Shown here: positions 352-23,500 of the stretch, piece after piece
How positions within the stretch are numbered: the stretch's first letter is position 1
Layout of the letters: every line of letters starts with the position of its first letter
Virus record (IMG/VR): IMGVR_UViG_2698536339_000017
Direction: 5' to 3' (one strand)
Origin: a virus
Lineage: Duplodnaviria > Heunggongvirae > Uroviricota > Caudoviricetes
Length of the DNA stretch: 28,361 nucleotides
Translations under genes and position numbers: made by a program
Notes under the pieces: generated by a model
Databases searched by the model: none
The model's input: only the letters and a program-made list of their open reading frames with translations
What the model was told of the DNA's origin: nothing

Positions 352-377
352 TTTCTTTTAACTTTATGGAGTGAAAA

Positions 378-5439: not shown

Positions 5440-5443
5440 AAGA

Positions 5444-6567: not shown

Positions 6568-6838
6568 GTTTCAGTTCCTCGATCCGGCGTTGTCGTTGTC
6601 TCAGCTGTGCGCTGGTCTGTTCTGCTTCGGCATAGAGCCGCGCCTGCTCCCGGTTATTGGTTTCAGTCAGAATGGACAGGCTGATAAGCTGGCTGTTGCT
6701 CTTTGCCAGTGCCTGGCTTTTGCTCTGCAGCTCGTTTGCCTGCGTGCTGATGGTCTGGCTGGCATCAGCCAGCCGCCACGTCTGCCAGCCCAGCGCCGCC
6801 AGTAATAACGCCAGCACAACCAGCAGCAACCGGTTCAT
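6410..6838 (-). CDS. lysB: Rz-like inner-membrane spanin (LysB)
   Basis: 142 aa with N-terminal TM helix then a coiled-coil-like region (QANELQSKSQALAKSNSQL...RQRQRRIEELKRENEDLRHW). Confidence 0.7.
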   Translation of the reverse strand: MNRLLLVVLALLLAALGWQTWRLADASQTISTQANELQSKSQALAKSNSQLISLSILTETNNREQARLYAEAEQTSAQLRQRQRRIEELKRENEDLRHWADTPLPADIIRLRERPALTGGAAYRQWLSASDAVSAGAGSTAH

Positions 6839-7212
6839 GCGGCTACCTGTTGCGCCATCTGATTACGGGTGATCCAGAAGGCAATAACGGTCAGTAGATA
6901 AAAGACCAGGGTAATAGCCCACCCCGTCCATGCGAGACTTACAACAATCAGCAATCGCATCACCCAACTGATAAATACGTTTTCTTTTCGGGTAATTGTC
7001 TTCAGCAAAGATGCCCTTAACTCCTGCCAGAGCGGGCCATTCTGAATTAACGCAGCCAGTGCTACCGGAATTACCGCCCATGTCAGCAAACAGGCTACCC
7101 AAACGCCGGACGCTGCCAGTACCGGAAAGATCCCCTGCGGATACACCATTGCTGCGATTAACAGCGCCATCCATAACATCAGAAACAGTCCGCTGATTAA
7201 TTTCTTTTTCAT
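6835..7212 (-). CDS. lysA: LysA-like membrane protein (lysis timing)
   Basis: Multi-TM hydrophobic protein. Start set at the MKKKLISG Met, which follows the endolysin stop; the longest ORF starts at 7284. Confidence 0.55.
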   Translation of the reverse strand: MKKKLISGLFLMLWMALLIAAMVYPQGIFPVLAASGVWVACLLTWAVIPVALAALIQNGPLWQELRASLLKTITRKENVFISWVMRLLIVVSLAWTGWAITLVFYLLTVIAFWITRNQMAQQVAA

Positions 7213-7213
7213 T

Positions 7214-7726
7214 TCAGTTTGCTCCCTGTAAACACCAGGCCATCTCCCGCGCACGGCGGTTATCCAGCCCCTGATTAAACACACCTTTCACATAAACCCA
7301 GCGCGGCAACTGTCGGCACGCATCCGCCCAGCGCCGCTGATTGAGTAATTTCACCAGCGTGGAACTGCAGGCATTGCCCGTCCCCACGTTGAAGGCAAAC
7401 GACACCGTAGCGTCATACACCTTCTGCGGCGGCTGTTGCTTCACACACCTTTCCAGCGCCCGCTCCACACGTAGCACGTTGGAGATCAGCCCTTCTGCTG
7501 CCTGTCGTTCCGTAATAGTTTTGCCGGGAATGACGCCCGACGTATTACCAATGCCGTCGGTCCAGACACCCGCGCTGCACTGATACGGCTGCAGACGACA
7601 GCCTTCGTAATCGGCAATCAGTTTCAGCCCCTCCACGGAGGTGTGAAGTTGCTGAAACCCCGGCAGCGTGGCAGCAATAGCCAGCACGGCCCCGACAAGG
7701 CAGCGTTTAACGATTGATGGATTCAT
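7214..7726 (-). CDS. Endolysin, T4-lysozyme-like with an N-terminal signal-anchor-release (SAR) type segment
   Basis: 170 aa. N-terminal weakly hydrophobic Gly/Ala-rich segment (VKRCLVGAVLAIAATLPG) followed by ...LIADYEGCRLQPY...GVWTDGIGNT..., resembling the phage 21 R-type SAR endolysin. Confidence 0.75.
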   Translation of the reverse strand: MNPSIVKRCLVGAVLAIAATLPGFQQLHTSVEGLKLIADYEGCRLQPYQCSAGVWTDGIGNTSGVIPGKTITERQAAEGLISNVLRVERALERCVKQQPPQKVYDATVSFAFNVGTGNACSSTLVKLLNQRRWADACRQLPRWVYVKGVFNQGLDNRRAREMAWCLQGAN

Positions 7727-7922
7727 AGTCCTCCCGCGAGATCTGCCCGTCGCGCAGAAGCTGGTAGGCTTTGTGTTTGTAGTACCAGTTGATAGCCAGC
7801 ATCAGCACACCAATCATCAGGCCACCCAGCGTTGAGGCATCCTTGATGGACAAATCGCCCAGCCAGGCCAGCACAACGGCGATGCAATACGTGATAAAGG
7901 CGCTGATTCGCTCAAGCGTCAT
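7707..7922 (-). CDS. Small two-TM holin (pinholin-like)
   Basis: 71 aa with two hydrophobic segments and a charged C-terminus. Sits immediately upstream of the SAR-type endolysin. Confidence 0.6.
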   Translation of the reverse strand: MTLERISAFITYCIAVVLAWLGDLSIKDASTLGGLMIGVLMLAINWYYKHKAYQLLRDGQISREDYESINR

Positions 7923-7925
7923 AAT

Positions 7926-8129
7926 TCAGTCCCATAGCTGGACGGTCTGCACGGTGGTGGTGGTCGGAATGTCCGGCAGCTCCACCTGCAGCCCGTGAGG
8001 TAAAAAAGGGCCAAATTCGGCAAGCCCCGGATTTGCCTTCAGTACCTGCTCCGTGACACCCTGCGTGCGCCCGTAATGACGCCAGCAAAGCGCGTCCACC
8101 GTGTCATACTGATGCGCACGCACTTTCAT
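7926..8129 (-). CDS. X: Tail protein X
   Basis: 67 aa, MKVRAHQYDTVDALCWRHYGRTQGVTEQVLKANPGLAEFGPFLPHG..., similar to P2 gpX. Confidence 0.85.
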   Translation of the reverse strand: MKVRAHQYDTVDALCWRHYGRTQGVTEQVLKANPGLAEFGPFLPHGLQVELPDIPTTTTVQTVQLWD

Positions 8130-8593
8130 CAGATAAGCTCCACTGTGCAGTGCGGCGCATCCTGTACCCGGCAGATGGCCCAGCGGGCGTCACGCCACAA
8201 ATCACCGCTGGCTTCTGCCAGTTCCTCGCCCCGCTTCACACCGGATGCCGTGGCGTCATAGTCCTGGTAACGTTCGTTGAGCATGGCGCGAGCCCAGCAG
8301 TAAACCGCGTTGAAATAGTGCTGAATTCGCTCGCTTTTCCCGTCCAGCTGTTCCGCCGGAACCTCTGCCAGCGAGGCATATCCCAGCATCTGCTGGCGTC
8401 TGCGAAACTCATACAGCTCTGCGTTGACCTCCGAAATTGCCGACAGCGCAACCTGCTTTAAACGCGGCTGCGTCACCGTGCCGTCAGTGCGCATCACACT
8501 GCGAAACTCCGACAGGTCCACATCAGGCCAGAACGGCGTATTTCTGATGATTTCCGCCTGTTCCGGTGCCTGTTCTGGCGCAACAAACTTCAT
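8129..8593 (-). CDS. L: Head completion/stabilisation protein L
   Basis: Similar to P2 gpL. Start set at MKFVAPEQ (8593), which has an AGGAG-type RBS upstream; the longest ORF extends to 8656. Confidence 0.75.
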   Translation of the reverse strand: MKFVAPEQAPEQAEIIRNTPFWPDVDLSEFRSVMRTDGTVTQPRLKQVALSAISEVNAELYEFRRRQQMLGYASLAEVPAEQLDGKSERIQHYFNAVYCWARAMLNERYQDYDATASGVKRGEELAEASGDLWRDARWAICRVQDAPHCTVELI

Positions 8594-8688
8594 GCTGCTT
8601 TCTCCTGAAATAGAGGGCGGTGGACGGGGTTTTGATGTGGCAGTGCCTTTCGCCACCCCGTGCCGCCCGTGCGCGGGGGCACGTTCTG

Positions 8689-9339
8689 TCAGCGGCTGTC
8701 ATTGCGCAGTCTGCGCTCCAGCTGCTGTTTGTCTTTTTTCACGCCACAGCGGGGATCGAGCTGCAACGCATGGTTGAGATGATTAAGGGCGGAAGCCGGA
8801 TTGCTTTCACTCAGGACAGCGCCAATCGCTTTATGCAGACGCGCCCGTGACTGGTCCGGCATATCCAGACCGTCTGTCAGCTCCAGCGTCTGCAACAACA
8901 GATCGGCATCAAAGCCGGTGGCGGCAAGCATTGCGCTCTGCGCGGCGTCTGACATTTCCTCTGCCAGCACGGTCTGCACATTGCGGTTACCCAGTGGCAT
9001 CACCCAGCCATGACGTAGGGCATGACGCCCGATCTCCAGCGCCCCGGCATAATCTCCGGCATCAATGCGCCACAGCATCACGTACATCAGCACGTCATCC
9101 TGTTGAGTGCCTCCGGCAGCCAGGACACCCTCTGCCCAGGCAGCGTATTTCGGCAGCAGCTCCACCTTGATTTCCGCTTTTTTGACCGTGGACTGAACGC
9201 CCTTGAGACGGCGGCGGTCTTCCGCCAGTTGCAGCAGCATCAGGTCATAGCCCGACGCGTGGCGAACACTGCCGCCCTCGCGGGCGGCCTGTTCAGCCTG
9301 AACGCGCAGGCGATGCTGCCGTGCGGGACTCAGGCTCAT
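8689..9339 (-). CDS. M: Terminase endonuclease (small) subunit M
   Basis: 216 aa with ...DDVLMYVMLWRIDAGDYAGALEIGRHALRHGWVMP..., similar to P2 gpM. Confidence 0.85.
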   Translation of the reverse strand: MSLSPARQHRLRVQAEQAAREGGSVRHASGYDLMLLQLAEDRRRLKGVQSTVKKAEIKVELLPKYAAWAEGVLAAGGTQQDDVLMYVMLWRIDAGDYAGALEIGRHALRHGWVMPLGNRNVQTVLAEEMSDAAQSAMLAATGFDADLLLQTLELTDGLDMPDQSRARLHKAIGAVLSESNPASALNHLNHALQLDPRCGVKKDKQQLERRLRNDSR

Positions 9340-9342
9340 GAA

Positions 9343-10401
9343 TTACGCTCCGGTTTCTGCTGCGGCGGCGCTGAAGTCGCCAATCTGGATGTTTTCCACC
9401 AGTGCGGCACAGCGGTAGTCCTCAACCACATAGGCTTCGTTAACGGATTCAAAGTTTTCAATCCGGTCACGTTTCGGGTTGTCGATAACTGAACGGCGGC
9501 GGGTGTCTTCCTGCCAGTAGATGGACAGGTTATCCAGACGGGTAATCAGCAGTGCATTCGGCGGGAAGAACGGCGCACGCACGGCCTGCAGGCCCCCCAT
9601 GCGTTTCTGGCTGATGATCATATCGGCAGCCAGTTTTTCACTGTTTTCCTGCTCTTTGTTGACCAGCGGGAAATACTTGTCAGACAGCAGTTCACGACCG
9701 CAAATCACCACCAGATCGTCATCGTCCTGGTAGACCACGTCGATAAGCTCATTGACGGCATCCATCACCACGGCGTCCAGGTTGGCATATTCGCCACCTT
9801 TCCCGACTTTCACTGCGCCCGGTGTGGTTTCACCGCCCGTGGTGGTGCTGCCCATGACGTGATCCGGTGCATCCTCACGGATTTTCTGCAGCCAGCCTTT
9901 ATTCACATCCTGCAGTAGCGGGTTTTCGCTACGGTTGGAGGTTTTCGCACGCTTCACGCCGTTAAAGCCGATCATGATGCGGTCCAGTGCCTGACGTTTC
10001 ACGATGGCGTCACGGATACGCACCTGAAAATCCTGAAACTTCGCCCACAGGTCCAGCTTCGCGTAGGTCAGCACCGTGTCAAAGTTGGTCTGCTCGCATT
10101 TATATTCCACATCGACCATCAGCGTCGGATCGACAGGTTCACGCTCTTTCGCGGTGGTATCAGTGGTTCCGGCAATGGTGCTGCCAACTCCCAACCCCAG
10201 CAGCTGACCGGACTGCTCAGTCACTGGCGTGACGTTAATCAGCGTCAGGAAAGCGGCGGACTGCTGGATCTGGTCTTCCAATGTCTGCTGCACGGACGGC
10301 TCTACGGTGAACTTGCTGGACAGTTCTTCAACTGCCACACCGTTCAGACGCGCCAGCTGCTGCAGGTAAGCGTTAAAAGCCAAGCGGGTATTCTTCTTCA
10401 T
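9343..10401 (-). CDS. N: Major capsid protein N
   Basis: 352 aa, similar to P2 gpN across its length. Confidence 0.9.
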   Translation of the reverse strand: MKKNTRLAFNAYLQQLARLNGVAVEELSSKFTVEPSVQQTLEDQIQQSAAFLTLINVTPVTEQSGQLLGLGVGSTIAGTTDTTAKEREPVDPTLMVDVEYKCEQTNFDTVLTYAKLDLWAKFQDFQVRIRDAIVKRQALDRIMIGFNGVKRAKTSNRSENPLLQDVNKGWLQKIREDAPDHVMGSTTTGGETTPGAVKVGKGGEYANLDAVVMDAVNELIDVVYQDDDDLVVICGRELLSDKYFPLVNKEQENSEKLAADMIISQKRMGGLQAVRAPFFPPNALLITRLDNLSIYWQEDTRRRSVIDNPKRDRIENFESVNEAYVVEDYRCAALVENIQIGDFSAAAAETGA

Positions 10402-10417
10402 CGGGTTTTGTGCTCCA

Positions 10418-11251
10418 TCAGCAATTGGTCAGAGTGTCAGCGGGGGCGTTACCGCCTGTTGCACGCTGGCGGTAGTCCTGGCGGCTGTCTTCATGACTCA
10501 GCTTATTCACCAGTTCGTTAAAGGCGGTCTGCTGTGCCTGCAGGGCAGTCTCCAGCTCAGACAGACGTTCTTCCTGCTCAGACAGGGATTTTTCGGTCCG
10601 TGCGCTCAGGTTCTGCTGCTCAGTGGCGACCAGCTCCACGGCCTTATGCACATCAGAGAACCGGGCATCGTCGGACTGCTCTTTTTTGGTGAACAGCGCC
10701 GTGACGCGGGCAAACAGGGACGGCTTGTCCTCCTGGATTTCTTCCAGTTCGATCACCGTTTCCTCTGCGGCGGTAAAGAGATTGGCGGGATTCTGCTTGC
10801 GGTTTGCCAGCGGGTTATGGGCTGCACTGGCGCTGAATGTCAGCATTTCAGTGCCCAGACTGGCAGGGTCATCAGTGGCAGCCAGCCCGACCAGGTAGGC
10901 TTTGCCCGTATCAGCAAACTTTGGGCTGACTTCCATAGAGGTGAATAATTTCTGGCCTTTTTTCACCAGATCCACCAGGGACTCTGTTGGCTCAACGTCG
11001 GCATACAGCGCCATCTTGCCTGCCAGCGGACCTTCCGTGATTTCTTCAGCAAACAGCGCCGTCACCTTGCCGTAGCGGTTAAAGGTGCTGTCCGGCAGAT
11101 AAGACTTGATGTGCTCAAGGTTAATCAGCGCGGTATACACCGCCGGGTTGTAGCTGGCTGCCATCTGTTCCAGCCATTCACGCTGGATTTCGCGTCCGTC
11201 GGTGGTGGCACCTTCCACCCCGATGCGAAAACGCTTTGCTTTCACTGTCAT
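10418..11251 (-). CDS. O: Capsid scaffolding protein O
   Basis: 277 aa; position and composition (acidic coiled-coil C-terminal part) match P2 gpO. Confidence 0.8.
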   Translation of the reverse strand: MTVKAKRFRIGVEGATTDGREIQREWLEQMAASYNPAVYTALINLEHIKSYLPDSTFNRYGKVTALFAEEITEGPLAGKMALYADVEPTESLVDLVKKGQKLFTSMEVSPKFADTGKAYLVGLAATDDPASLGTEMLTFSASAAHNPLANRKQNPANLFTAAEETVIELEEIQEDKPSLFARVTALFTKKEQSDDARFSDVHKAVELVATEQQNLSARTEKSLSEQEERLSELETALQAQQTAFNELVNKLSHEDSRQDYRQRATGGNAPADTLTNC

Positions 11252-11329
11252 GAGCCGTGCTCCGTTAGAAAAAACTTACTGGAGCCTTATGGTTGCGGTG
11301 ATGGGGGCAGTGAAACAATGCGCGGTATT

Positions 11330-11347
11330 TGTACCGACAACCACACA
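11330..11347. promoter_or_regulatory. TGT-N12-ACA Ogr-type late promoter box in the divergent P/O intergenic region
   Basis: TGTACCGACAACCACACA. Centre is about 87 bp from the O start codon, compatible with a -55 activator site plus about 30-nt leader for the O operon. No second clean box for P was found. Confidence 0.45.
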
Positions 11348-11393
11348 AACCGCAGGCGGGGAAAGCCTTCATTCAAGGCTGTAGGTTTGTGCC

Positions 11394-13160
11394 ATGAACA
11401 CCACACTGACACCCGCAGATCTCGATCCCCGTCGGCAGGCCATGCTGCTGTACTTTCAGGGATACCGCGTAGCCCGCATTGCTGAAATGCTGGGCGAGAA
11501 AGTTGCAACCGTTCACAGCTGGAAAAAACGCGACAAGTGGGGTGACTATGGGCCGCTGGATCAGATGCAGCTCACCACCGCCGCACGTTACTGCCAGCTC
11601 ATTATGAAGGAGCACAAAGAAGGGAAAGATTTCAAAGAAATTGATCTGCTGGCGCGCCAGTCGGAGCGCCACGCGCGGATCGGCAAGTTTAACAATGGCG
11701 GCAACGAAGCCGATTTAAACCCTAACGTCGCCAACCGCAACAAAGGCCCGCGCCGTCAGCCTGAAAAGAATGTTTTCACCGATGAACAGATTGAGAAGCT
11801 GGAAGAAATCTTCCATTCCTCCATGTTCAACTACCAGCGTCACTGGTGGGAAGCCGGAAAAACCAACCGCATCCGCAACCTGCTGAAGTCACGCCAGATC
11901 GGCGCGACCTTCTATTTTGCCCGTGAAGCCCTGATTGACGCCCTGCTAACCGGACGTAACCAGATTTTCCTTTCTGCCAGTAAGGCACAGGCGCACGTCT
12001 TTAAGCAGTACATCATCGACTTCGCCAAAGAAGTGGAAGTGGAGCTGAAAGGCGATCCGATGGTGCTTCCCAACGGGGCCACACTGTATTTCCTCGGCAC
12101 CAATGCCCGCACTGCCCAGAGTTACCACGGCAACCTGTATCTGGATGAATATTTCTGGATACCGAAATTCCAGGAGCTGCGCAAAGTGGCTTCCGGTATG
12201 GCTATTCACAAAAAATGGCGACAAACCTATTTTTCCACGCCATCCAGCCTGACCCACAGTGCTTATCCGTTCTGGTCCGGTGCGCTGTTCAACCGTGGAC
12301 GCAACAAAGCCGACAAGGTGGACATCGACCTGTCCCACAGCAATCTGGCCCCCGGCCTGCTGTGCGCAGACGGGCAATACCGCCAGATAGTCACCGTAGA
12401 AGATGCGGTGCGCGGCGGCTGTAACCTGTTCGACCTTGACCAGTTGCGCATGGAATACAGCCCGGACGAATACCAGAACCTGCTGATGTGTGAGTTCGTG
12501 GACGATCTCGCGTCCGTGTTCCCGCTCAGCGAGCTGCAGGCGTGCATGGTGGACAGTTGGGAAGTCTGGACCGACTTTCATGCACTGGCCCTGCGCCCGT
12601 TTGGCTGGCGCGAAGTGTGGATCGGTTATGACCCGGCAAAAGGTACGCAGAACGGCGACAGCGCCGGATGCGTGGTGGTGGCACCGCCAGCCGTGCCGGG
12701 CGGTAAGTTCCGCATTCTTGAGCGTCACCAGTGGCGCGGGATGGACTTCCGCGCCCAGGCTGATGCAATCAAAAAACTGACCGAGCAGTACAACGTGACC
12801 TACATCGGCATCGACTCGACAGGTGTCGGCCACGGGGTTTACGAGAACGTGAAAGCGTTTTTTCCAGCCGTCCGGGAGTTTGTCTACAACCCCAACGTTA
12901 AAAACGCCCTGGTACTCAAGGCCTACGACATTATCAGTCACCGTCGTCTGGAGTTTGACGCCGGACACACCGACATAGCGCAGTCATTTATGGCAATCCG
13001 TCGCGCCACCACCGCCAGCGGCAACCGCCCAACCTATGAAGCCAGCCGCAGCGAAGAAGCCAGCCATGCCGATCTGGCCTGGGCAACAATGCACGCACTG
13101 TTTAACGAACCGCTGCAGGGCGAGTCCGCCAATACCAGCAATATTGTGGAGATTTTTTGA
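11394..13160 (+). CDS. P: Terminase ATPase (large) subunit P
   Basis: 588 aa, similar to P2 gpP. Divergent from O as in P2. Confidence 0.9.
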   Translation: MNTTLTPADLDPRRQAMLLYFQGYRVARIAEMLGEKVATVHSWKKRDKWGDYGPLDQMQLTTAARYCQLIMKEHKEGKDFKEIDLLARQSERHARIGKFNNGGNEADLNPNVANRNKGPRRQPEKNVFTDEQIEKLEEIFHSSMFNYQRHWWEAGKTNRIRNLLKSRQIGATFYFAREALIDALLTGRNQIFLSASKAQAHVFKQYIIDFAKEVEVELKGDPMVLPNGATLYFLGTNARTAQSYHGNLYLDEYFWIPKFQELRKVASGMAIHKKWRQTYFSTPSSLTHSAYPFWSGALFNRGRNKADKVDIDLSHSNLAPGLLCADGQYRQIVTVEDAVRGGCNLFDLDQLRMEYSPDEYQNLLMCEFVDDLASVFPLSELQACMVDSWEVWTDFHALALRPFGWREVWIGYDPAKGTQNGDSAGCVVVAPPAVPGGKFRILERHQWRGMDFRAQADAIKKLTEQYNVTYIGIDSTGVGHGVYENVKAFFPAVREFVYNPNVKNALVLKAYDIISHRRLEFDAGHTDIAQSFMAIRRATTASGNRPTYEASRSEEASHADLAWATMHALFNEPLQGESANTSNIVEIF

Positions 13161-14185
13161 TGGGAAAGAGTAAAAAAAACCGCGTAGCGGCGATGAATCA
13201 GATCCAGCATAAAAGCCAGACTTCAGCCGAAGCATTCAGCTTCGGCGATCCCGTTCCTGTTCTGGACCGCCGTGAACTGCTGGACTATGTGGAATGCGTA
13301 CAGACAGATCGATGGTATGAGCCGCCAGTGAGTTTTGACGGGCTGGCGCGCACCTTTCGCGCCGCCGTGCATCACAGCTCACCGATTGCGGTGAAATGCA
13401 ATATTCTGACCAGTACCTACATCCCTCACCCGCTGCTCAGCCAGCAGGCTTTTTCACGTTTTGTGCAGGACTATCTGGTATTTGGTAACGCCTACCTGGA
13501 GAAACGCACGAACCGCTTCGGTGAAGTTATCGCCCTTGAGCCTGCTCTGGCAAAATACACCCGACGCGGGTTAGACCTGGATACCTACTGGTTTGTGCAA
13601 TACGGTATGACAACCCAGCCGTATCAGTTCACGAAAGGCAGCATTTTTCATCTGATGGAACCGGACATCAACCAGGAGATCTACGGCCTGCCAGGTTATC
13701 TTTCTGCCATTCCGTCAGCCCTGCTCAACGAGTCCGCCACGCTGTTCCGCCGGAAGTATTACATTAACGGCAGTCATGCAGGCTTCATCATGTACATGAC
13801 CGATGCCGCGCAGAACCAGGAGGATGTGAACAACCTCCGCAATGCGATGAAAAGCGCCAAAGGCCCTGGCAACTTCCGCAACCTGTTTATGTACTCGCCT
13901 AACGGCAAAAAGGACGGGCTTCAGATCATCCCGTTGTCAGAAGTCGCGGCGAAGGATGAATTTCTTAACATCAAGAACGTGAGTCGGGATGACATGATGG
14001 CAGCGCATCGTGTGCCGCCACAAATGATGGGGATAATGCCTAATAATGTTGGGGGATTTGGGGATGTAGAAAAAGCTAGTAAGGTATTTGTGAAAAATGA
14101 ATTATTACCATTACAAAAAAGAATGAAAGAATTTAATCATTGGAGCGGTGAAGAAATTATAAAATTCGAGAGATATCAAATTTAG
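13157..14185 (+). CDS. Q: Portal protein Q; last about 50 codons have AT-rich codon usage (recombinant 3' end)
   Basis: 342 aa, similar to P2 gpQ including the C-terminus. Codon composition switches abruptly to AT-rich near 14030. Confidence 0.9.
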   Translation: MMGKSKKNRVAAMNQIQHKSQTSAEAFSFGDPVPVLDRRELLDYVECVQTDRWYEPPVSFDGLARTFRAAVHHSSPIAVKCNILTSTYIPHPLLSQQAFSRFVQDYLVFGNAYLEKRTNRFGEVIALEPALAKYTRRGLDLDTYWFVQYGMTTQPYQFTKGSIFHLMEPDINQEIYGLPGYLSAIPSALLNESATLFRRKYYINGSHAGFIMYMTDAAQNQEDVNNLRNAMKSAKGPGNFRNLFMYSPNGKKDGLQIIPLSEVAAKDEFLNIKNVSRDDMMAAHRVPPQMMGIMPNNVGGFGDVEKASKVFVKNELLPLQKRMKEFNHWSGEEIIKFERYQI

Positions 14186-14191
14186 CAAAGT

Positions 14192-14206
14192 GCCTCTAAA
14201 AGAGGC
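14192..14206. terminator. Short hairpin between convergent Q and DprA-like gene stops (possible bidirectional terminator)
   Basis: GCCTCT-aaa-AGAGGC inverted repeat in the 24-bp gap. Stem is short, so termination efficiency is uncertain. Confidence 0.3.
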
Positions 14207-14209
14207 GCT

Positions 14210-15184
14210 TTAAATCAAGTCTAATGTACTCTGTTTCCCTGGCCATTTTAGCTCTAACAAATACTCCCGGGACTCATTTATGATCATAATCACATCATCA
14301 TAATCCCGTTTTGTTTTTAGCGCTCTAGCCATGTTGCTCTTAACTAAATCAACTGTTCCCTCACAATTAAGATTAAGCGGATTATTAGGTAGGTGAGGTA
14401 CAACCGCAAACACTGGTCTTTTCGCCTTATTTGCAAACTCAGCTTGAGTTATCGTTCCGCTATTTAACGCAGCCTCGATTAAAATTGAACCTGCAGATAA
14501 TCCAACTTGTATCCGATTTCTTTGTACAAATGATTGTTTCTGGGCCGGCCGACCCATAGGATACTCAGAAATCCATGCACCACCTTTATCCAGAATCTCT
14601 TGAGCAAGTCGACTGTTTTGCTTCGGCTTAGCCTCCTCAAGACCATGCGCCAAGACAGCAATGGTTTTTCCTTTTGCCTGTAACGTTGCCTTGTGGGCAT
14701 TCGCATCAGTGCCTATTGCTAACCCACTTACAACAATATACCCAGCAGACACTATCTGATTAGTGATCCGCCTCGTTATTTCTTCCCCTGCAGGGGAGGT
14801 ATCACGGGATCCTACAATTGCGACACCCGGCAATTCTTTGAGTATACTTTTATCCCCTTTTATGTAGAGAATTGATGGTGGATTAGGAGTAAAAGCTAAA
14901 CTAAGAGGATAGAATTCAGACCCATATGGTATTAGCTCCACACCATTAACATGGTGGTTCTCCAATTCAGCGTTCGCTATTAGAAAATCAGTCTCAGATA
15001 TTTTATCTTTTAGAAACCCGTGGCTATTAACCATCTCAGTTAAGTCGCGTATATCACGAATAACATCAAAATCGATAAGCTCAAAGAATTTTAATACACT
15101 TTGATCAGATGCTAGCTTCCCGATTTGAATAGCTAATCCAAGTGTATTTTTTAATTCTTCTGAGTGCACTTTGCTACTCCTCAT
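14210..15184 (-). CDS. DprA/Smf-like Rossmann-fold protein (DNA_processg_A / SLOG-type domain) with about 110-aa N-terminal extension
   Basis: 324 aa with motifs GVAIVGSRDTSPAGEE...GYIVVSGLAIGTDANAHKATLQAKGKTIAVLAHGLE...GGAWISEYPMG...QRNRIQVGLSAGSILIEAALNSGT, matching the conserved DprA core. AT-rich codon usage. Overlaps the upstream gene by 11 bp. Confidence 0.8.
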   Translation of the reverse strand: MRSSKVHSEELKNTLGLAIQIGKLASDQSVLKFFELIDFDVIRDIRDLTEMVNSHGFLKDKISETDFLIANAELENHHVNGVELIPYGSEFYPLSLAFTPNPPSILYIKGDKSILKELPGVAIVGSRDTSPAGEEITRRITNQIVSAGYIVVSGLAIGTDANAHKATLQAKGKTIAVLAHGLEEAKPKQNSRLAQEILDKGGAWISEYPMGRPAQKQSFVQRNRIQVGLSAGSILIEAALNSGTITQAEFANKAKRPVFAVVPHLPNNPLNLNCEGTVDLVKSNMARALKTKRDYDDVIMIINESREYLLELKWPGKQSTLDLI

Positions 15185-15749
15185 AGTTTGCAGTTTCTAG
15201 CAGAGCTAATGGCATTATAACTCCAGCTCCTGCAGACTCCAGTAAATAAAAACACGCAGACAAACTACCGCCTGTTGTTTTAACATCATCTAGTAGTAAC
15301 ACATTTCGCCCCATGAGGTTACCACCCCTAACTCTGATACTAGACATGTGACCAGTAATTGAGCGATCTCCTCCTTCACGATGTGCGCTAGGAACAGTGC
15401 GTGTTCTTTCCAAACAGCAATCAACAATGCCCCGACGGTGAACATTTACGATTCGCTCGGCGACCTCAATCAAAGCCGGTGAAATTCTGCCTTCAGTGTG
15501 AGACGGGACAACTGCTATCGAAAAAGGAGACTCAACAAAACGCCCACCGCCACCTCTGATTACTAACCGCCCAACCTTATCTATAGCTAATCGAGAAAAA
15601 CGGTTAATGGCCCTTTGATGATTACGATTATTTTCATCCTTAAAATCCATCATCTGCCTTGATAGTTCATCGCTATGAGGGTTGCGCTCTCCCAAATGCC
15701 AGTAGGGGTGATACAAGCCACACGATGTAATACTTACGGGTAAAAGCAT
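15174..15749 (-). CDS. ComF-like phosphoribosyltransferase-domain protein
   Basis: 191 aa with a PRPP-binding-type motif NVLLLDDVKTTGGSL near the C-terminus. No obvious N-terminal four-Cys zinc finger. Weak RBS, so the exact start is uncertain. First gene of a two-gene operon with the DprA-like gene. Confidence 0.7.
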   Translation of the reverse strand: MLLPVSITSCGLYHPYWHLGERNPHSDELSRQMMDFKDENNRNHQRAINRFSRLAIDKVGRLVIRGGGGRFVESPFSIAVVPSHTEGRISPALIEVAERIVNVHRRGIVDCCLERTRTVPSAHREGGDRSITGHMSSIRVRGGNLMGRNVLLLDDVKTTGGSLSACFYLLESAGAGVIMPLALLETANYEE

Positions 15750-15879
15750 TCTTTATTCTCATGTAGTCCTAACTCAAACAATGTTAAGCGAAATGATATT
15801 TCATAGACAAACACAAATTTAAGAATAATCTCAATGATCACATTTTTGATTATGAAACAAAGCCAAGAGTTAGCGCGCG

Positions 15880-15898
15880 CTCGTATCCCCGCCACGCC
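15880..15898 (-). other. Candidate cos (cohesive end) core inside a GC-rich island
   Basis: Minus strand reads GGCGTGGCGGGGATACGAG followed by CGCGCGCTAAC. The first 13 nt match the P2/186-family cohesive-end sequence GGCG(A/T)GGCGGGGA as I recall it, and the following GCGCGCT(A/G)AC resembles the sequence next to P2 cos. The island is GC-rich within AT-rich surroundings. Memory-based, not aligned. Confidence 0.35.
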
Positions 15899-16277
15899 TG
15901 CCCGCTTTATGCAGTGGTTTTCATGCACATGCATGACATGAGCAAAAGCCCGCCAGTTCTGGCGGATCTGAGCAAAGACGATCCTCAATCGATCATGCGA
16001 TTTCATGCAGCATAGTCATGCACTGTCAAGGAAGTGAAAATCCGTATCTGAATGGCCACTTGAAAAACGGATCATACGGGTTTACAAAGATGAATGTTCG
16101 CTGTGAACGGGAAGCGGAAGTTAACTTTCAGATAACATAATCCATATGCACGAGAACCTCTAAAATAGAATGGGACACCTAAGCGGGGTACTTACAACGA
16201 TTCTTTCCATATTCACAGTTAACACTCTGTTTGGCGTATTTTTATTCAAATAGCAAACACCAATAAAAGGAGTTTCC

Positions 16278-16559
16278 ATGAACAATATTCCCCCTATACC
16301 ACAGTTAGGAATTTATGTCTCAAAAATCGATCCCACCCTACGTATCACTGTAACCGATGTTGATATTGTTGATGGTGAGGATGATTCTCCTGATGATGAA
16401 TTGTTTTATTTAGTCCACTGGATCGAGGGGGAAGATGAAAGTGATATGACAGCAATGGGATTTGAGCTAGACCCAGTAGAGTGGCAGGCTTTCGTTGAAT
16501 CTGAGCAATTAGTGTTTGAGCGTGATGATCCTACCCACGTAATATGGACACAGGCCTAA
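16278..16559 (+). CDS. Small, very acidic protein of unknown function; native 3' end replaced by IS3 terminal sequence
   Basis: Good RBS (AAAAGGAG) 6 bp upstream of ATG. About 82 native codons with roughly 29 percent Asp/Glu. The last 11 codons (PTHVIWTQA and stop) are encoded by the IS3 terminal inverted repeat starting at 16526. Confidence 0.5.
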
Positions 16560-17422
16560 GCGAGGTTCTTGTTTTCAAATTGTTCCGGACTGAGGCCGCC
16601 ACACCAACTGTGCCGCCGCCACCGATTGTAATCACATTCGATATAATTAAACACCGTTGCCCGCATTATTTCCCGGCTGATAAAGTGTTCTCCATGGATA
16701 CATTCCACTTTCAGCGAATGAAAGAAGCTTTCCACGCAGGCATTATCGTAGCAGCAACCTTTTGCGCTCATACTTCCACGCAGATTATGCCGCTTCAGTT
16801 GCGCCTGATAATCTGCTGAACAGTACTGGCCTCCACGGTCCGTGTGAACGATAACGTTCCGGGGCCTCTTACGCCGCCACAGCGCCATCTGCAGGGCATC
16901 GCAGGCCAGTTGCGCCGTCATGCGTGGCGACATTGACCAGCCAATAACGGCACGTGACCACAGGTCAATGACCACTGCCAGATACAGCCAGCCTTCATCT
17001 GTACGTAAGTACGTGATGTCTCCTGCCCACTTCTGGTTCGGGCCACTGGCGTAAAAATCCTGCTCCAACAGATTTTCTGACACAGGCAGGCCGTGTGCGC
17101 GGTAGCTGACCGGGCTGAACTTCCGGGAGGCCTTTGCCCTCAGTCCCTGACGGCGCAGGCTTGCCGCCACGGTTTTTACGTTAAAGGGGTAACCCTGAGC
17201 ACGCAGTTCATCCGTCAGGCGTGGGGCACCGTAACGCTGTTTTGACCGGGTAAAAGCCGCGAGGACAACGCTGTCGCAGTGTTGGCGGAACTGCTGACGC
17301 GTGCTTATCCTTGTCCGCCGCTGACACCACGTATACCAGCCGCTGCGGGCCACCCGGAGCACGCGGCACATTGCTTTGATGCTGAACTCAGCCTGATGTT
17401 TTTCAATAAAGACATACTTCAT
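16556..17422 (-). CDS. insF: IS3 transposase orfB (InsF-type, DDE integrase domain)
   Basis: 288 aa; sequence recognised as IS3 orfB. Normally expressed as an OrfAB frameshift fusion, which the truncated orfA here cannot provide. Confidence 0.85.
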
Positions 17423-17567
17423 TTCAGGCGCTTCGCGAAGTATGTCGCGGCCTTTTGGAGGATAGCCAGCTCTTCATCCCGTTCTGCCAGCTGGCGTTTG
17501 AGACGTGCAATCTCGGTAGACATCTCCAGTTCACGTTCAGAAGACGTCTGCTGATTTTGCTGTTTAC
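17419..17567 (-). pseudogene. insE: IS3 orfA (InsE-type) remnant, N-terminally truncated
   Basis: Encodes only the C-terminal part ...[48 protein letters not shown]; HTH-containing N-terminus and promoter absent. Confidence 0.75.
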
Positions 17568-17569
17568 AC

Positions 17570-17595
17570 TTCTCCCAAACCAACGTTTATGAAAA
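17570..17595 (+). other. Gin/Hin-type crossover site adjacent to the invertase gene (site C)
   Basis: TTCTCCCAAACC-AA-CGTTTATGAAAA; about 20 of 26 positions match hixL (TTCTTGAAAACCAAGGTTTTTGATAA) as I recall it. Left half identical to the tail-fibre half-sites. Lies 55 bp upstream of the invertase start. Confidence 0.65.
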
Positions 17596-17650
17596 TGCAG
17601 AGATAACGGCTAACTGGCATCATCTCCGGTTTTTATTCAGGAGGATGATC

Positions 17651-18217
17651 ATGCTTATTGGCTATGTACGCGTGTCAACAAATGACCAGAACACCGATTT
17701 GCAACGCAATGCACTGAACTGTGCGGGATGTGAGCGGATTTTTGAGGATAAAATCAGTGGCACCAAGTCCGACAGACCGGGGCTGAAAAAGCTGCTCAGG
17801 ACACTATCGGCAGGAGACACGCTGGTTGTCTGGAAGCTGGACAGACTGGGGCGCAGTATGCGGCATCTTGTTACGCTGATAGAAGAGCTGCGCCAGCGTG
17901 GCGTGAATTTCCGAAGCCTGACTGACAGTATTGATACCAGCACCCCAATGGGCCGTTTCTTTTTTCATGTCATGGGTGCCCTGGCTGAAATGGAACGCGA
18001 ACTGATAGTTGAACGTACCAGGGCGGGGCTGGCTGCAGCTCGTGCTAAAGGCAGAGTAGGTGGACGCCGTCCTAAGTTGACCAGCGAACAGTGGGCACAG
18101 ATTGGGCGTTTACTCGAGGCCGGAGAATCAAGACAGCGTATTGCACTGATTTTTGATGTAGGCGTTTCTACCATTTATCGAAAATTTCCGGCAAATAAGA
18201 ACAATAAATCTCCCTGA
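17651..18217 (+). CDS. Serine recombinase DNA invertase, Gin/Pin/Cin/Hin family
   Basis: MLIGYVRVSTNDQNTDLQRNAL... with catalytic Ser in VRVST and a C-terminal HTH (GVSTIYRKF). Near-identical in motif content to Mu Gin as I recall it. RBS AGGAGG upstream; an in-frame ATG at 17645 is an alternative start. Confidence 0.9.
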   Translation: MLIGYVRVSTNDQNTDLQRNALNCAGCERIFEDKISGTKSDRPGLKKLLRTLSAGDTLVVWKLDRLGRSMRHLVTLIEELRQRGVNFRSLTDSIDTSTPMGRFFFHVMGALAEMERELIVERTRAGLAAARAKGRVGGRRPKLTSEQWAQIGRLLEAGESRQRIALIFDVGVSTIYRKFPANKNNKSP

Positions 18218-18265
18218 ATCAGCTTTATTTTGATTATCCCTGAAAGCAGACAAATACCGTCATTT

Positions 18266-18283
18266 TGTGTGAATAACGGTACA
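18266..18283 (+). promoter_or_regulatory. TGT-N12-ACA Ogr-type late promoter box for the FI operon
   Basis: TGTGTGAATAACGGTACA centred about 85 bp upstream of the FI start codon, the expected -55 position with about 30-nt leader. Confidence 0.5.
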
Positions 18284-18359
18284 ACTGCGCTTAGCTGTTT
18301 GTCAGGCACAATCACTTCAACATAGGGCGAAGCCTAATCCAATCAGGAGGTTCGCCACT

Positions 18360-19532
18360 ATGGCTCAGGATTACCACCACGGGGTGCGCGTTGTTGAAGT
18401 CAACGAAGGCACCCGATCCATTACCACGGTGAGCACCGCCATCGTGGGTATGGTCTGCACGGGCGATGATGCCGATGCAAAAATGTTTCCTCTTAATAAA
18501 CCCGTGCTGATCACTGATGTGCTGACTGCCAGCGGTAAAGCGGGTGAGTCAGGCACGCTGGCTCGTTCGCTGGATGCCATCGCTGACCAGGCAAAACCCG
18601 TGACCGTTGTTGTGCGTGTGCCGCAGGGTGAAACGGAAGAAGAAACCACGACCAATATCATCGGAGCAGTGACCGCTGAAGGTAAAAAAACAGGCATGAA
18701 AGCCCTGTTATCTGCCCAGTCACAGCTCGGCGTTAAACCGCGCATTCTCGGCGTGCCAGGTCACGACACGAAGGCGGTAGCTACTGAGTTGCTGAGCGTG
18801 GCGCAAAGCCTGCGTGGATTTGCTTACCTGTCAGCGTATGGTTGCAAGACAGTGCAGGAAGCAATCACTTACCGTGAAAACTTCAGTCAGCGTGAAGGAA
18901 TGCTGATCTGGCCCGACTTTACTGGCTGGGACACGGTGCTGAATGCCGAAGCAACGGCTTATGCCACCGCCCGTGCGCTTGGTCTGCGCGCCAAAATTGA
19001 CGAGCAGACCGGATGGCACAAAAGCCTGTCCAACGTGGGCGTTAACGGTGTCACCGGAATTTCTGCTGATGTGTTCTGGGATCTGCAGGACCCGGCAACC
19101 GATGCGGGACTGCTGAACCAGAACGACGTCACCACCCTTATCCGCAAAGACGGTTTTCGCTTCTGGGGTTCCCGCTGCCTGAGTGATGACCCGCTCTTTG
19201 CCTTCGAAAACTACACCCGCACGGCGCAGGTGCTGACGGACACGATGGCAGAAGCGCACATGTGGGCGGTGGATAAACCGCTGAATCCGTCGCTGGCCCG
19301 CGACATTATCGAGGGTATCCGCGCCAAAATGCGCAGCCTGGTCAGTCAGGGCTATCTCATTGGTGGTGATTGCTGGCTGGATGAGTCGGTGAACGACAAA
19401 GACACGCTGAAAGCCGGAAAACTCACCATCGACTACGACTACACGCCAGTGCCGCCACTTGAAAACCTGATGCTGCGTCAGCGCATCACCGATCAGTACC
19501 TGGTGAATTTCTCCAGCCAGGTCAGCGCGTAA
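18360..19532 (+). CDS. FI: Tail sheath protein FI
   Basis: 390 aa, similar to P2 gpFI. Confidence 0.9.
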
Positions 19533-19541
19533 GGGGACAAC

Positions 19542-20057
19542 ATGGCTTTACCACGCAAATTAAAACACCTGAACCTGTTTAATGACGGGAACAACTGGCA
19601 GGGGATCGTTGAGTCGCTGACGCTGCCGAAATTTACCCGCAAATATGAGAAGTATCGCGGTGGCGGAATGCCGGGTGCAGTGGATGTGGATCTGGGGCTG
19701 GATGACGGCGCACTGGATACGGAATTTTCCATTGGTGGTACTGAACTGCTGCTGTTTAAGCAGATGGGCAAAGCCACGGTGGATGGTATCCAGTTGCGCT
19801 TTACCGGCTCTATCCAGCGTGACGATACCGGGGAAGTGCAGGCCGTGGAGCTTGTGGTGCGTGGACGTCACAAAGAAGTGGATTCCGGCGAGTGGAAGAC
19901 GGGCGAAAGCAACACCACCAAAGTGACCAGTACCAACAGCTACGCGAAGCTGACTATAAATGGTGAGGTGCTCTATGAAGTGGACCTTATCAACATGGTG
20001 GAAATTGTGGACGGTGTGGACCTGATGGAAGCGCACCGCAACGCCCTCGGCCTCTGA
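19542..20057 (+). CDS. FII: Tail tube protein FII
   Basis: 171 aa, similar to P2 gpFII. Confidence 0.9.
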   Translation: MALPRKLKHLNLFNDGNNWQGIVESLTLPKFTRKYEKYRGGGMPGAVDVDLGLDDGALDTEFSIGGTELLLFKQMGKATVDGIQLRFTGSIQRDDTGEVQAVELVVRGRHKEVDSGEWKTGESNTTKVTSTNSYAKLTINGEVLYEVDLINMVEIVDGVDLMEAHRNALGL

Positions 20058-20111
20058 TGTATCTGAACGGCGCGGGATACCGCGCCAGAACCCAATTTAC
20101 AGGACAGCAAA

Positions 20112-20414
20112 ATGAGCGATAAGCAGACTGAAAAGACCATTCAACTGGATACCCCCATCAAGCGCGGTAAAACAGAAATCACCGAAATTGTGCTGCGTAA
20201 ACCGCAGTCCGGTGCGCTGCGCGGTACACGCCTGCAGGCCATTATGGATATGGATGTAAACGCGATGATGACCGTGATCCCCCGCATCTCCAGTCCGGCA
20301 CTGACTGCACAGGAAATTGCAGAGATGGACCCGGCAGATCTCACTGCCATGTCGGTTGAGGTTGTCACTTTTTTGTTGAAGAAGTCGGTGCTTGCCGGTT
20401 TACCGACAGCCTGA
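20112..20414 (+). CDS. E: Tail assembly chaperone E
   Basis: 100 aa; position between FII and T. Contains the slippery heptamer near its 3' end. Confidence 0.8.
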   Translation: MSDKQTEKTIQLDTPIKRGKTEITEIVLRKPQSGALRGTRLQAIMDMDVNAMMTVIPRISSPALTAQEIAEMDPADLTAMSVEVVTFLLKKSVLAGLPTA

Positions 20415-20548
20415 CGGTTGACGATCTGGTGGCAGATATCGCCACCATTTTTCACTGGCCGCCATCCGTTACTGACGTTATGCCGCTGACCGAAGTGCTG
20501 GAATGGCGGTATAAAGCGATTCAGAGAAGCGGGGCCAACGATGAGTGA
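20112..20548 (+). CDS. E+E': E+E' fusion product made by programmed -1 ribosomal frameshift at T-TTT-TTG (20369-20375)
   Basis: Slippery sequence TTTTTTG sits in the zero frame as acT TTT TTG. The -1 frame stays open from 20375 to a stop at 20546-20548, overlapping the T start, giving about 145 aa as in P2 E+E'. Confidence 0.7.
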
Positions 20549-23500
20549 TAACAACCTGCGTCTGCAGGTCATTCTTAATGCGGTTGACAAGCTCACCCGC
20601 CCATTTCGATCTGCGCAGGCCAGTTCAAGAGAACTGGCTGCTGCTGTCAAAAAATCCCGCGATGCAATAAAGCAGCTTGATCAGGCCGGGAGCAGTCTGG
20701 ACAGCTTCCGAAAGCTGCAGGCAGAAAATCAGAAATTAGGCGACAGGCTGAACTATGCCCGCCAGCGTGCAAATTTGCTCAGTCAGGAACTGGGAGCGAT
20801 GGGGCCGCCTTCGCAACGTCAGGTTGTTGCTCTGGGCCGTCAACGGCTGGCTGTTCAGCGCCTGGAAGAACGCCAGAAAAAGCTGCAGCAGCAGACGGCG
20901 CTTGTGCGTGCTGAACTGTACCGGGCGGGAATTTCTGCGAAAGACGATGCGGGAGCAACTGCCCGTTTAGCCCGTGAAACATCACGTTATAACCAGGAAC
21001 TTTCGAAACAGGAGGCGCGGCTGAAGCGACTGGGGGAAGCTCAGCGCAGGATGAATGCAGCGCGTGCCAGTTATGCCCGTTCGCTGGAGGTGCGTGATCG
21101 TATTGCAGGTGCCGGAGCCACCACCACGGCTGCAGGGCTGGCAATGGGTGCGCCAGTGATGGCGGCAGTAAAAAGCTATACCAGCATGGAAGATGCCATG
21201 AAAGGTGTGGCAAAGCAGGTCAATGGTCTGCGTGACGATAATGGCAACCGCACTGCACGTTTTTATGAAATGCAGGATGCCATCAAGGCTGCCAGCGAAC
21301 AGTTGCCGATGGAAAACGGTGCGGTGGACTTCGCTGCACTGGTTGAAGGTGGTGCGCGCATGAACGTCGCAAACCCTCACGACAGCTGGGAAGATCAGAA
21401 ACGTGACCTGCTGGCCTTCGCCAGTACGGCAGCAAAGGCGGCAACAGCCTTTGAGCTGCCAGCGGATGAACTGTCAGAAAGTCTGGGGAAAATCGCCCAG
21501 CTCTACAAAATCCCCACCCGCAATATTGAACAGCTCGGTGATGCGCTGAACTATCTGGATGATAACGCCATGTCGAAAGGGGCAGACATCATTGATGTGA
21601 TGCAACGTCTGGGCGGTGTGGCTGACCGTCTGGATTATCGTAAAGCGGCGGCGCTGGGTTCCACCTTCCTGACACTGGGCGCTGCGCCAGAGGTTGCAGC
21701 CAGTGCAGCAAACGCGATGGTGCGTGAATTGTCCATTGCCACCATGCAAAGCAAGAGTTTCTTTGAAGGGATGGATCTGCTGAAACTCAATCCTGAAGTG
21801 ATTGAAAAGCAGATGACGAAGGATGCGATGGGAACCATCCAGCGCGTGCTGGAGAAGGTAAACGCGCTGCCGCAGGACAAGCGCCTGTCTGCCATGACTA
21901 TGTTGTTTGGTAAAGAGTTTGGCGATGACGCGGCGAAACTGGCAAACAACCTGCCGGAACTGCAGCGTCAGTTAAAACTGACAGCGGGCAATGATGCGCT
22001 CGGCTCCATGCAGAAAGAATCCGACATTAACAAGGATTCACTTTCTGCGCAGTGGTTGCTGGTCAAAACCGGAGCGCAGAACACCTTCAGCAGCCTGGGC
22101 GAAACGCTGCGCCAGCCGCTGATGGATATTCTGTACACGGTGAAAAGCGTCACGGGGGCGTTGCGTCGCTGGGTGGAAGCTAACCCGGAACTGACAGGCA
22201 CACTGATGAAAGCATCGGCTGTTGTGGCTGCGGTTACCGTCGGCCTCGGCACCTTAGCGGTGGCGCTGGCTGCAGTGCTGGGGCCGCTGGCAGTGATCCG
22301 TCTGGGATTCTCTGTGTTGGGTATCAAAACGTTATCTTCCGTTACGGCAGCAGTAACTCGAACCAGCAGCGCGTTGTCCTGGCTGGCTGGCGCGCCACTG
22401 GCACTGCTGCGACGCGGGCTTGCTTCATCGGGCAACGCCGCAGGTTTACTTACTGCGCTGTTGTCGTCTTTGCGCCGCACGGCATCACTGACGGGAAATG
22501 TCCTGAAAACTGTAGCAGGTGCGCCGGTTGCACTTTTGCGGTCTGGATTATCCGGTTTACGTGCTGTTGCTGTGATGTTTATGAATCCTCTGGCGGTACT
22601 GCGCGGTGGACTGGCCGCCGCAGGCACGGTGCTGCGAGTACTGGCATCTGGTCCACTGGCGATGCTGCGCGTTGCCCTGTATGCCATATCTGGTCTGTTA
22701 GGTGCTCTGCTCAGTCCGATAGGTCTTGTGGTTACTGCACTGGCGGGCGTGGCGCTGGTTGTCTGGAAATACTGGCAACCCATCACCGCATTTCTCGGTG
22801 GCGTGGTGGAAGGATTCAAAGCGGCGGCAGGTCCCATCAGTGCAGCGTTCGAACCGCTTAAGCCCGTGTTCCAGTGGATTGGCGACAAAGTGCAGGCGCT
22901 GTGGGGCTGGTTTACTGATCTGCTGACGCCCGTTAAGTCGACCTCTGCCGAACTGCAGAGCGCAGCGGCCATGGGGCGACGATTCGGGGAGGCACTGGCA
23001 GAAGGGCTGAATATGGTCATGCATCCGCTGGACTCCCTGAAATCCGGCGTTTCCTGGTTGCTGGAGAAACTCGGCATTGTCAGTAAAGAGGCTGCAAAGG
23101 CGAAACTGCCGGAAAGCGTGACGCGTCAGCAACCTGCGACGGTGAAGGCAGACGGTAAAGTGATGATGCCATCGGGTGATTTTCCGTCATGGGGATATGG
23201 CTTTGCGGGGATGTATGACAGCGGCGGCTATATCCCGCGCGGGCAGTTTGGCATCGTCGGTGAAAACGGGCCGGAAATTGTTAACGGCCCGGCAAACGTG
23301 ACCAGCCGGAGAAATACAGCTGCACTGGCTGCCGTTGTCGCCGGAATGATGGGTGTTGCTGCCGCGCCAGCAGAGCTTCCACCGTTGCATCCTTTGGCGC
23401 TTCCCGCAAAAGGCGGTGAAGCGATGGTGAGTCGTGCAGCTAGTGTGCCGCCCATTTACCGGATTGAAGCACCGACGCAGATCATCATCCAGACACAGCC

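Follow-up and report, generated by a model that had tools for sequence, protein, structure and literature searches.

An AT-rich cassette that includes the end of the portal gene and probably moves as a unit up to cos in a 186/Fels-2-like prophage

The stretch of DNA analysed here (the window; 28,361 nucleotides, IMG/VR virus record IMGVR_UViG_2698536339_000017) is a prophage of the P2 family, of the 186/Fels-2 type, as judged from gene content and profile searches. An AT-rich interval begins inside its portal gene, Q, and holds an operon, shosTA, that is convergent to Q, followed by a conserved island containing the predicted cohesive end (cos), a second variable locus and a truncated copy of IS3 (Table 1). 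From 13000 to 16526 the window was 100% identical to Escherichia coli AMSHJX01 (NZ_CP030939; locus L002) and 99.8% identical to E2348/69 (L001), in both of which the prophage site lies between ybjL and rcdA. The interval between gpA and gpQ, beside cos, is a known defence hotspot of P2-like prophages in E. coli (Rousset et al. 2022, PMC9122126; taken up again in PMC13586616), and NZ_CP030939 with WP_001324531, which is this very locus, is catalogued in PMC9122126. The locus in the window has the properties by which the hotspot is recognised, namely a position between gpQ and gpA, adjacency to cos, and content that varies among near-identical prophages. The intact relatives L001 and L002 run past 16526 into a DUF8087 gene, DinI and the replication gene A (endonuclease); in the window an IS3 junction stands in place of the gpA side.

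Table 1. Features of the window. Coordinates are positions in the 28,361-nucleotide stretch; "." marks a feature listed with no strand.
Feature	Position	Strand	Remarks
Late genes H to O	1392 to 11251	minus	
Terminase gene P	11394-13160	plus	
Portal gene Q	13157-14185	plus	Pfam Phage_portal, 4.7e-17
Q, backbone part	13157-14023	plus	codons 1-289; GC 0.53, GC3 0.65
Q, cassette-linked AT-rich tail	14024-14185	plus	last ~54 codons and stop
Hairpin between convergent Q and shosA	14187-14211	.	11-bp stem; presumed bidirectional terminator
shosA	14210-15184	minus	DprA-like antitoxin, 324 aa, identical to WP_001324531
shosT	15174-15749	minus	short PRTase-like toxin, 191 aa; 11-nt overlap with shosA
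shosTA leader/promoter region	15750-15871	minus	cassette-specific; putative promoter
cos island	15872-16024	minus	predicted 19-nt cohesive end GGCGTGGCGGGGATACGAG at 15880-15898, minus strand
Second variable locus (P2 old/tin side of cos)	16025-16526	plus	DUF8087 gene 16278-16526, 3'-truncated by IS3
IS3 copy	16526-17567	minus	range matched by E. coli IS3 copies; ~216 bp gone at orfA end; outside cassette
ogr	25255-25506		right end, together with host genes ybjL and ybjM

The two genes between Q and cos resemble a toxin-antitoxin pair of the ShosTA type. The shosA product matched the PADLOC ShosA profile (2.8e-70) and Pfam DNA_processg_A (PF02481; 1.4e-60), aligned with the solved ShosA chains 8zva and 9vzo at ~1.7e-29, and is annotated as DprA in L001 and L002. 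The shosT product was recognised by the PADLOC ShosT profile (3.7e-14) and carries the phosphoribosyl pyrophosphate (PRPP)-loop motif VLLLDDVKTTGGS in its translation; its match to Pfam Pribosyltran (1.2e-3, 18.6 bits) fell under the family cut-off of 26.3. Profile matches were confined to the C-terminal, phosphoribosyltransferase (PRTase)-like part of this 191-residue protein, and none of them corresponded to the second (HAD/pyrophosphatase) domain of characterised ShosT. PsyrTA was considered as the family and rejected on its lower profile score. The toxin gene comes first and overlaps the antitoxin gene; from the Q stop codon the order is 25 bp, shosA, shosT and cos, with the start of shosT 131 bp from cos. 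The first-pass annotation of this DNA had likewise placed DprA-like and PRTase genes downstream of Q, both of which were found on the minus strand. These matches point to a putative short-toxin variant of ShosTA. shosT is unannotated in the RefSeq records of L001 (17278-17850) and L002 (16278-16850), where only the DprA gene is recorded, and the table entry of Rousset et al. for NZ_CP030939 gives only the DprA gene as well.

The remaining elements of this interval are short. The leader upstream of shosT had 99% identity in other ShosTA loci and was absent where the cargo differed. The hairpin between Q and shosA had a minimum free energy of -15.5 kcal/mol (z = -5.3), which none of 200 shuffled sequences equalled; it sits where the tQ terminator of P2 and the tW terminator of 186 are annotated and is their positional analogue, and every cassette type had a hairpin of its own. 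A 90-residue open reading frame on the minus strand (15734-16006) was rejected as a gene: it runs straight across the cos island, cohesive end included, has no family match, and is almost certainly not a gene.

The change in base composition lies within Q itself. Guanine-plus-cytosine (GC) content in sliding windows fell from ~0.52-0.55 to 0.33-0.36 between 13900 and 14200, and segmentation of 11394-17700 returned a single low-GC segment, 13956-16583 (GC 0.415), flanked by neighbours of 0.555 and 0.537. The maximum likelihood change point for GC at third codon positions (GC3) in Q was codon 295, at window position 14039, with GC3 of 0.646 before and 0.188 after; the log-likelihood ratio was 18.3, compared to a maximum of 7.5 in 500 shuffles. 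The step was abrupt, from 0.6-0.7 to 0.2-0.3 across ~10 codons. The last 50 codons of Q use AAT, AAA, TTA, GAA and ATT-type codons and still encode a portal C-terminus (...MMGIMPNNVGGFGDVEKASKVFVKNELLPLQKRMKEFNHWSGEEIIKFERYQI), which aligns with the tails of P2 Q and 186 W. The amino acids of the tail are AT-shifted too, with lysine in the window where P2, 186 and other tails have arginine. The first-pass annotation had described an abrupt change in codon usage near 14030, AT-type codons over the final ~50 codons of a P2-Q-like C-terminus, and an AT-rich character that continued up to the end of IS3; all three descriptions held, the profiles show a clear discontinuity in both GC and codon usage, and the IS3 end was placed at 16526.

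Comparison with other prophages located both ends of the unit to which the tail belongs. Seven other loci from IMG/VR or metagenomes carried the same ShosTA cassette on different backbones, with a Q body 5.5% diverged (94-95% identity) and identities of 100% in the tail (99.4% in one) and 98.5-99.3% in shosTA. Their Q genes differed from that of the window at 47-59 sites, the last of these at 14023 and the next mismatch at 14270; the exception was L086, with one mismatch at 14086. At the right side there were no mismatches from 15819 to 15903, and mismatches became dense from 15904-15912, just right of the predicted cohesive end. Because mismatches stop at 14023 and restart at 15904-15912, the exchanged unit would be about 14024-15898. 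A left junction inside the portal gene, with conserved Q sequence serving as the homologous arm, had already been proposed in the first-pass annotation, and the mismatches ending at 14023 bear it out. In two loci with unrelated cargo, L003 (P-loop NTPase) and L004 (PIN), Q matched the window until ~14143-14176, with identity decaying over the last ~150 nt, and the match picked up again from 15872 at 99.7-100%.

Junction positions were not uniform among loci. L003 showed no difference from the window across the initial ~35 nt of the AT-rich tail, diverging only after ~14066, and L004 diverged from about 13960; crossovers have therefore apparently occurred inside the tail as well, producing nested junctions. 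In L190 (metagenome contig Ga0157369_10007322), the portal reading frame ends after ...PLQKRMKEIND, ~15-20 codons short of other tails, and AT-rich cargo follows directly after this early stop, so a cargo junction can truncate the portal C-terminus.

The position of cos was obtained by aligning the circularised ends of P2 and 186 to the window. These ends aligned to 15873-15937, oriented towards Q, and the P2 cos 19-mer had no match in the window even with 3 mismatches allowed. Of 81 E. coli-lineage loci, 77 retained the cos island, with a median identity of 90%, and it was also present in SopEPhi and in Yersinia and Klebsiella phages. On its far side, the DUF8087 gene of the second variable locus is intact, at 336 nt, in L001-L004. 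The segment 16025-16526 was 99.7-100% identical in L003 and L004, whose Q-side cargo is unrelated, and occurred in only 6 of the 81 E. coli-lineage loci. Among 77 unique loci, pairs that shared the left cassette had a different right locus in 33 of 42 cases, and identity of the cos island tracked the right locus (0.98 vs 0.89). By these comparisons the right locus assorts almost independently of the left cassette, and linkage breaks at the cohesive end, where the virion DNA physically ends. The first-pass annotation had treated the AT-rich interval as one unit reaching 16525. That view was not sustained, as cos forms the right boundary of the cassette and a separate locus occupies 16025-16526.

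The relationship between portal tail and cargo was assessed in 160 Q-containing loci taken from GTDB species representatives and IMG/VR, which yielded 108 cassette clusters among about 140 loci. Across the 108 clusters tail GC correlated with the GC of the DNA downstream (r = 0.74), against r = 0.22 for the Q body as a control. Tail GC was 0.51-0.58 in empty Q-to-cos intervals (154-167 bp), P2 and 186, and 0.30-0.54 at cargo-bearing sites; all 80 cargo-bearing cassette types had depressed tails, no empty site did, and the tail in the window was the most AT-rich of the 80. On close backbones, tail identity was 0.993 for pairs with the same cargo and 0.645 for pairs with different cargo, and no different-cargo pair among them had a tail identity of at least 95%. 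A change point in divergence fell within 13894-14120 (median 14077) in all 53 of 53 E. coli-lineage cassette types. Nucleotide diversity rose gradually, from 0.06 to 0.37, towards the cargo and the Q stop codon, and the last ~20 portal residues were highly variable in both sequence and length. The tail-specific motif VKNELLPLQKRMKE was found in IMG/VR only on ten contigs, each with this ShosA, and P2, 186 and the empty sites have GC-normal tails, so this AT-rich end of Q is not a universal property of these phages.

More distant variants of the same cargo gave a similar picture. Salmonella phage SopEPhi and the IMG/VR loci L152, L157, L161, L174 and L178 carry the same ShosTA subtype in the same slot, at 49-88% amino-acid identity and with diverged AT-rich tails, on other backbones whose pre-tail Q has 85-87% nucleotide identity. 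ShosTA of L174, L178 and L194 was at 85-88% amino-acid identity and that of L152 and SopEPhi at 49-62%, and their tails had diverged to a matching degree. Synonymous divergence (dS) between the window and L085 was 0.26 in the Q body, 0 in the tail and 0.02-0.07 in the cargo (0.07 in shosA). For L194 the values were 0.385 in the Q body and 1.17 in the tail, and for L152 they were 0.356 and 1.70; the cargo was saturated in both. The ratio of nonsynonymous to synonymous divergence (dN/dS) was 0.03-0.05 in the Q body and 0.08-0.16 in the tail, and the tail is therefore under purifying selection with no sign of adaptive diversification. On this sequence evidence the tail co-diverges with the cargo, in identity, dS and GC, and not with the Q body. 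The shosA homologue of L178 (4001-4941) aligned in two frames (residues 11-202 and 200-324) and is either a frameshifted pseudogene or the product of a sequencing error.

These results indicate that the AT-rich stretch very probably represents the cos-proximal defence hotspot of 186/Fels-2-like Peduoviridae at the rcdA-ybjL site, organised in three parts and subject to cassette exchange by a crossover together with cos. The first part would be a cassette, 14024-15871, made up of the last ~54 codons of Q, the terminator hairpin and the ShosTA operon read from near cos towards Q; the others would be the conserved cos island and the independent DUF8087 locus that IS3 has cut. The cassette would spread among P2-like backbones via a single homologous crossover in the conserved Q body, with the last usable homology in the block that encodes AHRVPPQMMG (14003-14032). 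The second junction would come from cutting or annealing at cos, the cassette being the extreme left end of the packaged chromosome. Past codon ~290 the alleles would be too diverged to recombine, and the Q tail would therefore be locked to its cargo, sharing its age and its AT-rich composition. A broader proposal is that each Q-to-cos defence cassette in the P2/186/Fels-2 family has its own ancient, AT-shifted portal C-terminus and ends exactly at the cohesive end, so that the swapping unit is the left end of the virion DNA, exchanged through one crossover in the portal gene together with cos cutting, and the AT-richness of the cargo is a stationary feature of DNA that does not recombine and no sign of foreign origin; we put this forward tentatively, as a generalisation that falls slightly short of evenly balanced.

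The likely activity of the cargo can be suggested by analogy. Mechanistic studies of ShosTA concern the E. coli APEC O1 system (PMC11961720, PMC12961424), and toxicity, neutralisation and phage protection have been published only for this system; it is also the 'DprA + PRTase' system validated in PMC9122126, where it is listed with a HAD/PRTase_3 toxin. In the systems described, ShosT binds PRPP and poisons purine and nucleotide metabolism, and ShosA binds single-stranded DNA and RecA and neutralises ShosT without binding it directly. Phage-induced shut-off or phage DNA would then free the toxin and lead to abortive infection, and the pair in the window may act in the same way. The gene pair resembles that of APEC O1 in combining a DprA-like antitoxin with a predicted PRTase-type toxin, in placing the toxin gene first, and in the overlap of the two genes.

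Several points weigh against the reading of the locus as a ShosTA cassette exchanged through Q and cos. The crossover-plus-cos route is deduced from patterns of linkage, and the surveyed loci, which were dereplicated and clustered, are not phylogenetically independent samples. The predicted cohesive end and that of 186 share 14 of 19 positions, including an unbroken run over the first 13. Unlike the APEC O1 toxin, the ShosT of the window has only 191 residues and no HAD-type domain, and solved ShosT gave no sequence match to it even at E <= 10; in characterised ShosT the pyrophosphatase and PRTase activities are coupled (PMC11961720). Carrying the published mechanism over to this variant is therefore an assumption. 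A sigma-70 promoter with a strong consensus was not found upstream of shosT on the minus strand.

An alternative explanation accepts the same exchange and holds that the AT-richness, that of the tail included, arose and was kept in place, either as an AT-biased mutational equilibrium of cassette-locked, non-recombining DNA that lacks GC-biased gene conversion or through selection for AT-rich, H-NS-bound DNA, while the Q body recombines freely and stays GC-normal. That bacterial mutation is AT-biased and bacterial gene conversion GC-biased is an established idea. Where dS of ShosTA variants had reached 1.8 to >2, they had GC3 of 0.27-0.39 and tails of 0.22-0.37 on GC-normal backbones; because saturated variants still have GC3 of ~0.3, the AT-rich composition looks stationary, with no amelioration, rather than like a fading import signal. 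The gradual rise in diversity towards the cargo and the depressed tails found at every type of cargo-bearing site and at no empty one agree with an origin in place, as does the low dN/dS of the tail, which is that of a working portal segment and not of a foreign relic. In contrast, a GC3 step completed within ~10 codons resembles a junction more than a gradient, and the first entry of cargo into the slot is left unexplained. An origin of the AT-richness in place is possible, with the balance leaning somewhat against it.

The first-pass annotation had instead proposed that 14030-16525 is a single module, acquired through homologous exchange with a P2-like phage whose host has a lower GC content; the conserved 3' end of Q would be one arm and the AT-richness a signature of the donor. 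The sharp GC3 step, the AT-shifted amino-acid usage of the tail, the correlation of tail and cargo GC, and the junction demonstrated in Q all fit such an import. The module, however, is composite and ends at cos, with the segment beyond the cos island assorting independently, and saturated variants show no amelioration. Donor searches by motifs and top hits in four collections (the phage collection, IMG/VR, JGI metagenomes and GTDB species representatives) returned no low-GC donor backbone, whether with this tail or with a closer one. Q-body GC was at least 0.50 in 80 of 80 GTDB species hits, and the IMG/VR and metagenome carriers of back-translated tail motifs all had backbones of GC 0.50-0.60. 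Three metagenome matches to a shorter tail motif were rejected as other cassettes, with tails 45-74% identical to that of the window. The closest tails in the phage collection (tblastn) belonged to phages of Escherichia, Salmonella, Klebsiella and Yersinia and had 69-81% amino-acid identity; the tail itself falls within the Fels-2/186-like portal subclade of enterobacterial phages. Relatives close to this ShosA, with 60-100% amino-acid identity, occurred only in this slot of enterobacterial P2-like phages, and the identity of plasmid homologues was at most 48%. The import of a single module from a low-GC donor is thus improbable, and the claim was not borne out; a recent low-GC import is unlikely, and the cassette may have an ancient low-GC origin.

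Co-adaptation of the portal tail with the cargo, either to avoid triggering the resident defence or to evade defences that sense the portal, would also account for the near-perfect linkage between tail and cargo and for the high variability of the last ~20 residues. Portal proteins trigger some defence systems. The dN/dS of the tail indicates purifying selection and gives no hint of adaptive diversification, divergence falls off smoothly away from the cargo, and the pattern holds in every cargo type whatever its mechanism, as physical linkage beside non-homologous DNA predicts, and these features make co-adaptation very unlikely. Delivery of the cargo by the adjacent IS3, through composite or one-ended transposition, is suggested by the way the element abuts the AT-rich stretch at 16526 and has a negligible probability, given that E2348/69, AMSHJX01 and others have this cassette with its flanks at 99.8-100% identity and no IS3, that the element breaks a DUF8087 gene that is intact elsewhere, and that the IS3 copy is itself truncated and sits at the junction of a rearrangement.

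The hotspot, the cargo family and this locus have all been published, and the mapping of the boundaries is an incremental refinement. The locus described here shares with the hotspot of Rousset et al. the phage family, the slot beside cos, the kind of cargo and the identical locus. The published hotspot is bounded by whole genes, from gpQ to gpA, whereas the variable region here starts ~54 codons before the end of gpQ and is divided between two independently assorting loci that flank the cohesive end. P2 old/tin and 186 orf97 are similar to the cargo in being AT-rich lysogenic-conversion or exclusion genes beside cos in the same family, but their place is across cos from that of the cargo, where the virion DNA has its right end; this corresponds to the window from 16025 onwards. 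The Q-to-cos interval of P2 and 186 itself is only ~170-190 bp, holds a terminator alone and follows a GC-normal Q tail; in the window it holds ShosTA.

What is added is resolution of the exchange unit to the base pair, with a crossover zone in the last conserved portal block and the cohesive end at the other side. This lends sequence-level support to the route by cos ends and one homologous crossover, which was offered as speculation in PMC9122126. It further shows that hotspot catalogues delimited by genes merge two independent loci and leave out the portion of gpQ moving with the cargo. Caution is also needed in taking AT-rich defence cargo as evidence of a low-GC donor. If cassette-locked tails are general, the portal tail would be a ready-made genealogical tag for the history of defence cassettes.

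The right part of the window is rearranged. The matches of AMSHJX01 and E2348/69 to the window stop at 16526, and IS3 is missing from the same position in L001-L004. The orfB product of this IS3 copy (288 aa) matched Pfam rve and HTH_21. Relative to L002, a 16.5-kb block, bounded by the invertible tail-fibre segment and DUF8087, has the opposite orientation to the part running from the invertase and FI through D to ogr, and the early region (DinI, A, cI and int) is missing from the window. The rearranged parts are window 1-16526 and 17569-25506, and the junction, 16526-17595, holds the 5'-truncated IS3. Window 1-600 equals L002 1102-1701, window 17569-18400 is the reverse complement of L002 283-1114, and 13 bp, GGTTTGGGAGAAG, are consequently present at both places, inverted relative to each other. 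None of the complete E. coli genomes in the collection contained the IS3-invertase junction. This junction could be a real IS-associated rearrangement, in which case the prophage would have been left defective, or could have been made by the assembly at repeats.

A serine invertase of the Hin/Gin/Cin type is encoded at 17645-18217 (Pfam Resolvase, 2.3e-53), and a 26-bp crossover-like site, TTCTCCCAAACCAACGTTTATGAAAA, lies immediately upstream of it at 17570-17595. Window 4-1392 carries alternative C-termini of the tail fibre together with assembly genes, in opposite orientations (gp53-like_C and two Caudo_TAP). The invertase, the crossover-like site and the alternative tail-fibre ends indicate an invertible host-range segment; the first base of the window falls within the partner crossover half-site. 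Related prophages have another variable accessory locus, located between cI and int (L001 26258-27775; L002 25138-26885), in a region that is absent from the window. It holds a KAP P-loop NTPase in E2348/69 and an AAA ATPase with a DUF4276 protein in AMSHJX01, and agrees with the minor integrase-proximal hotspot described in PMC13586616.

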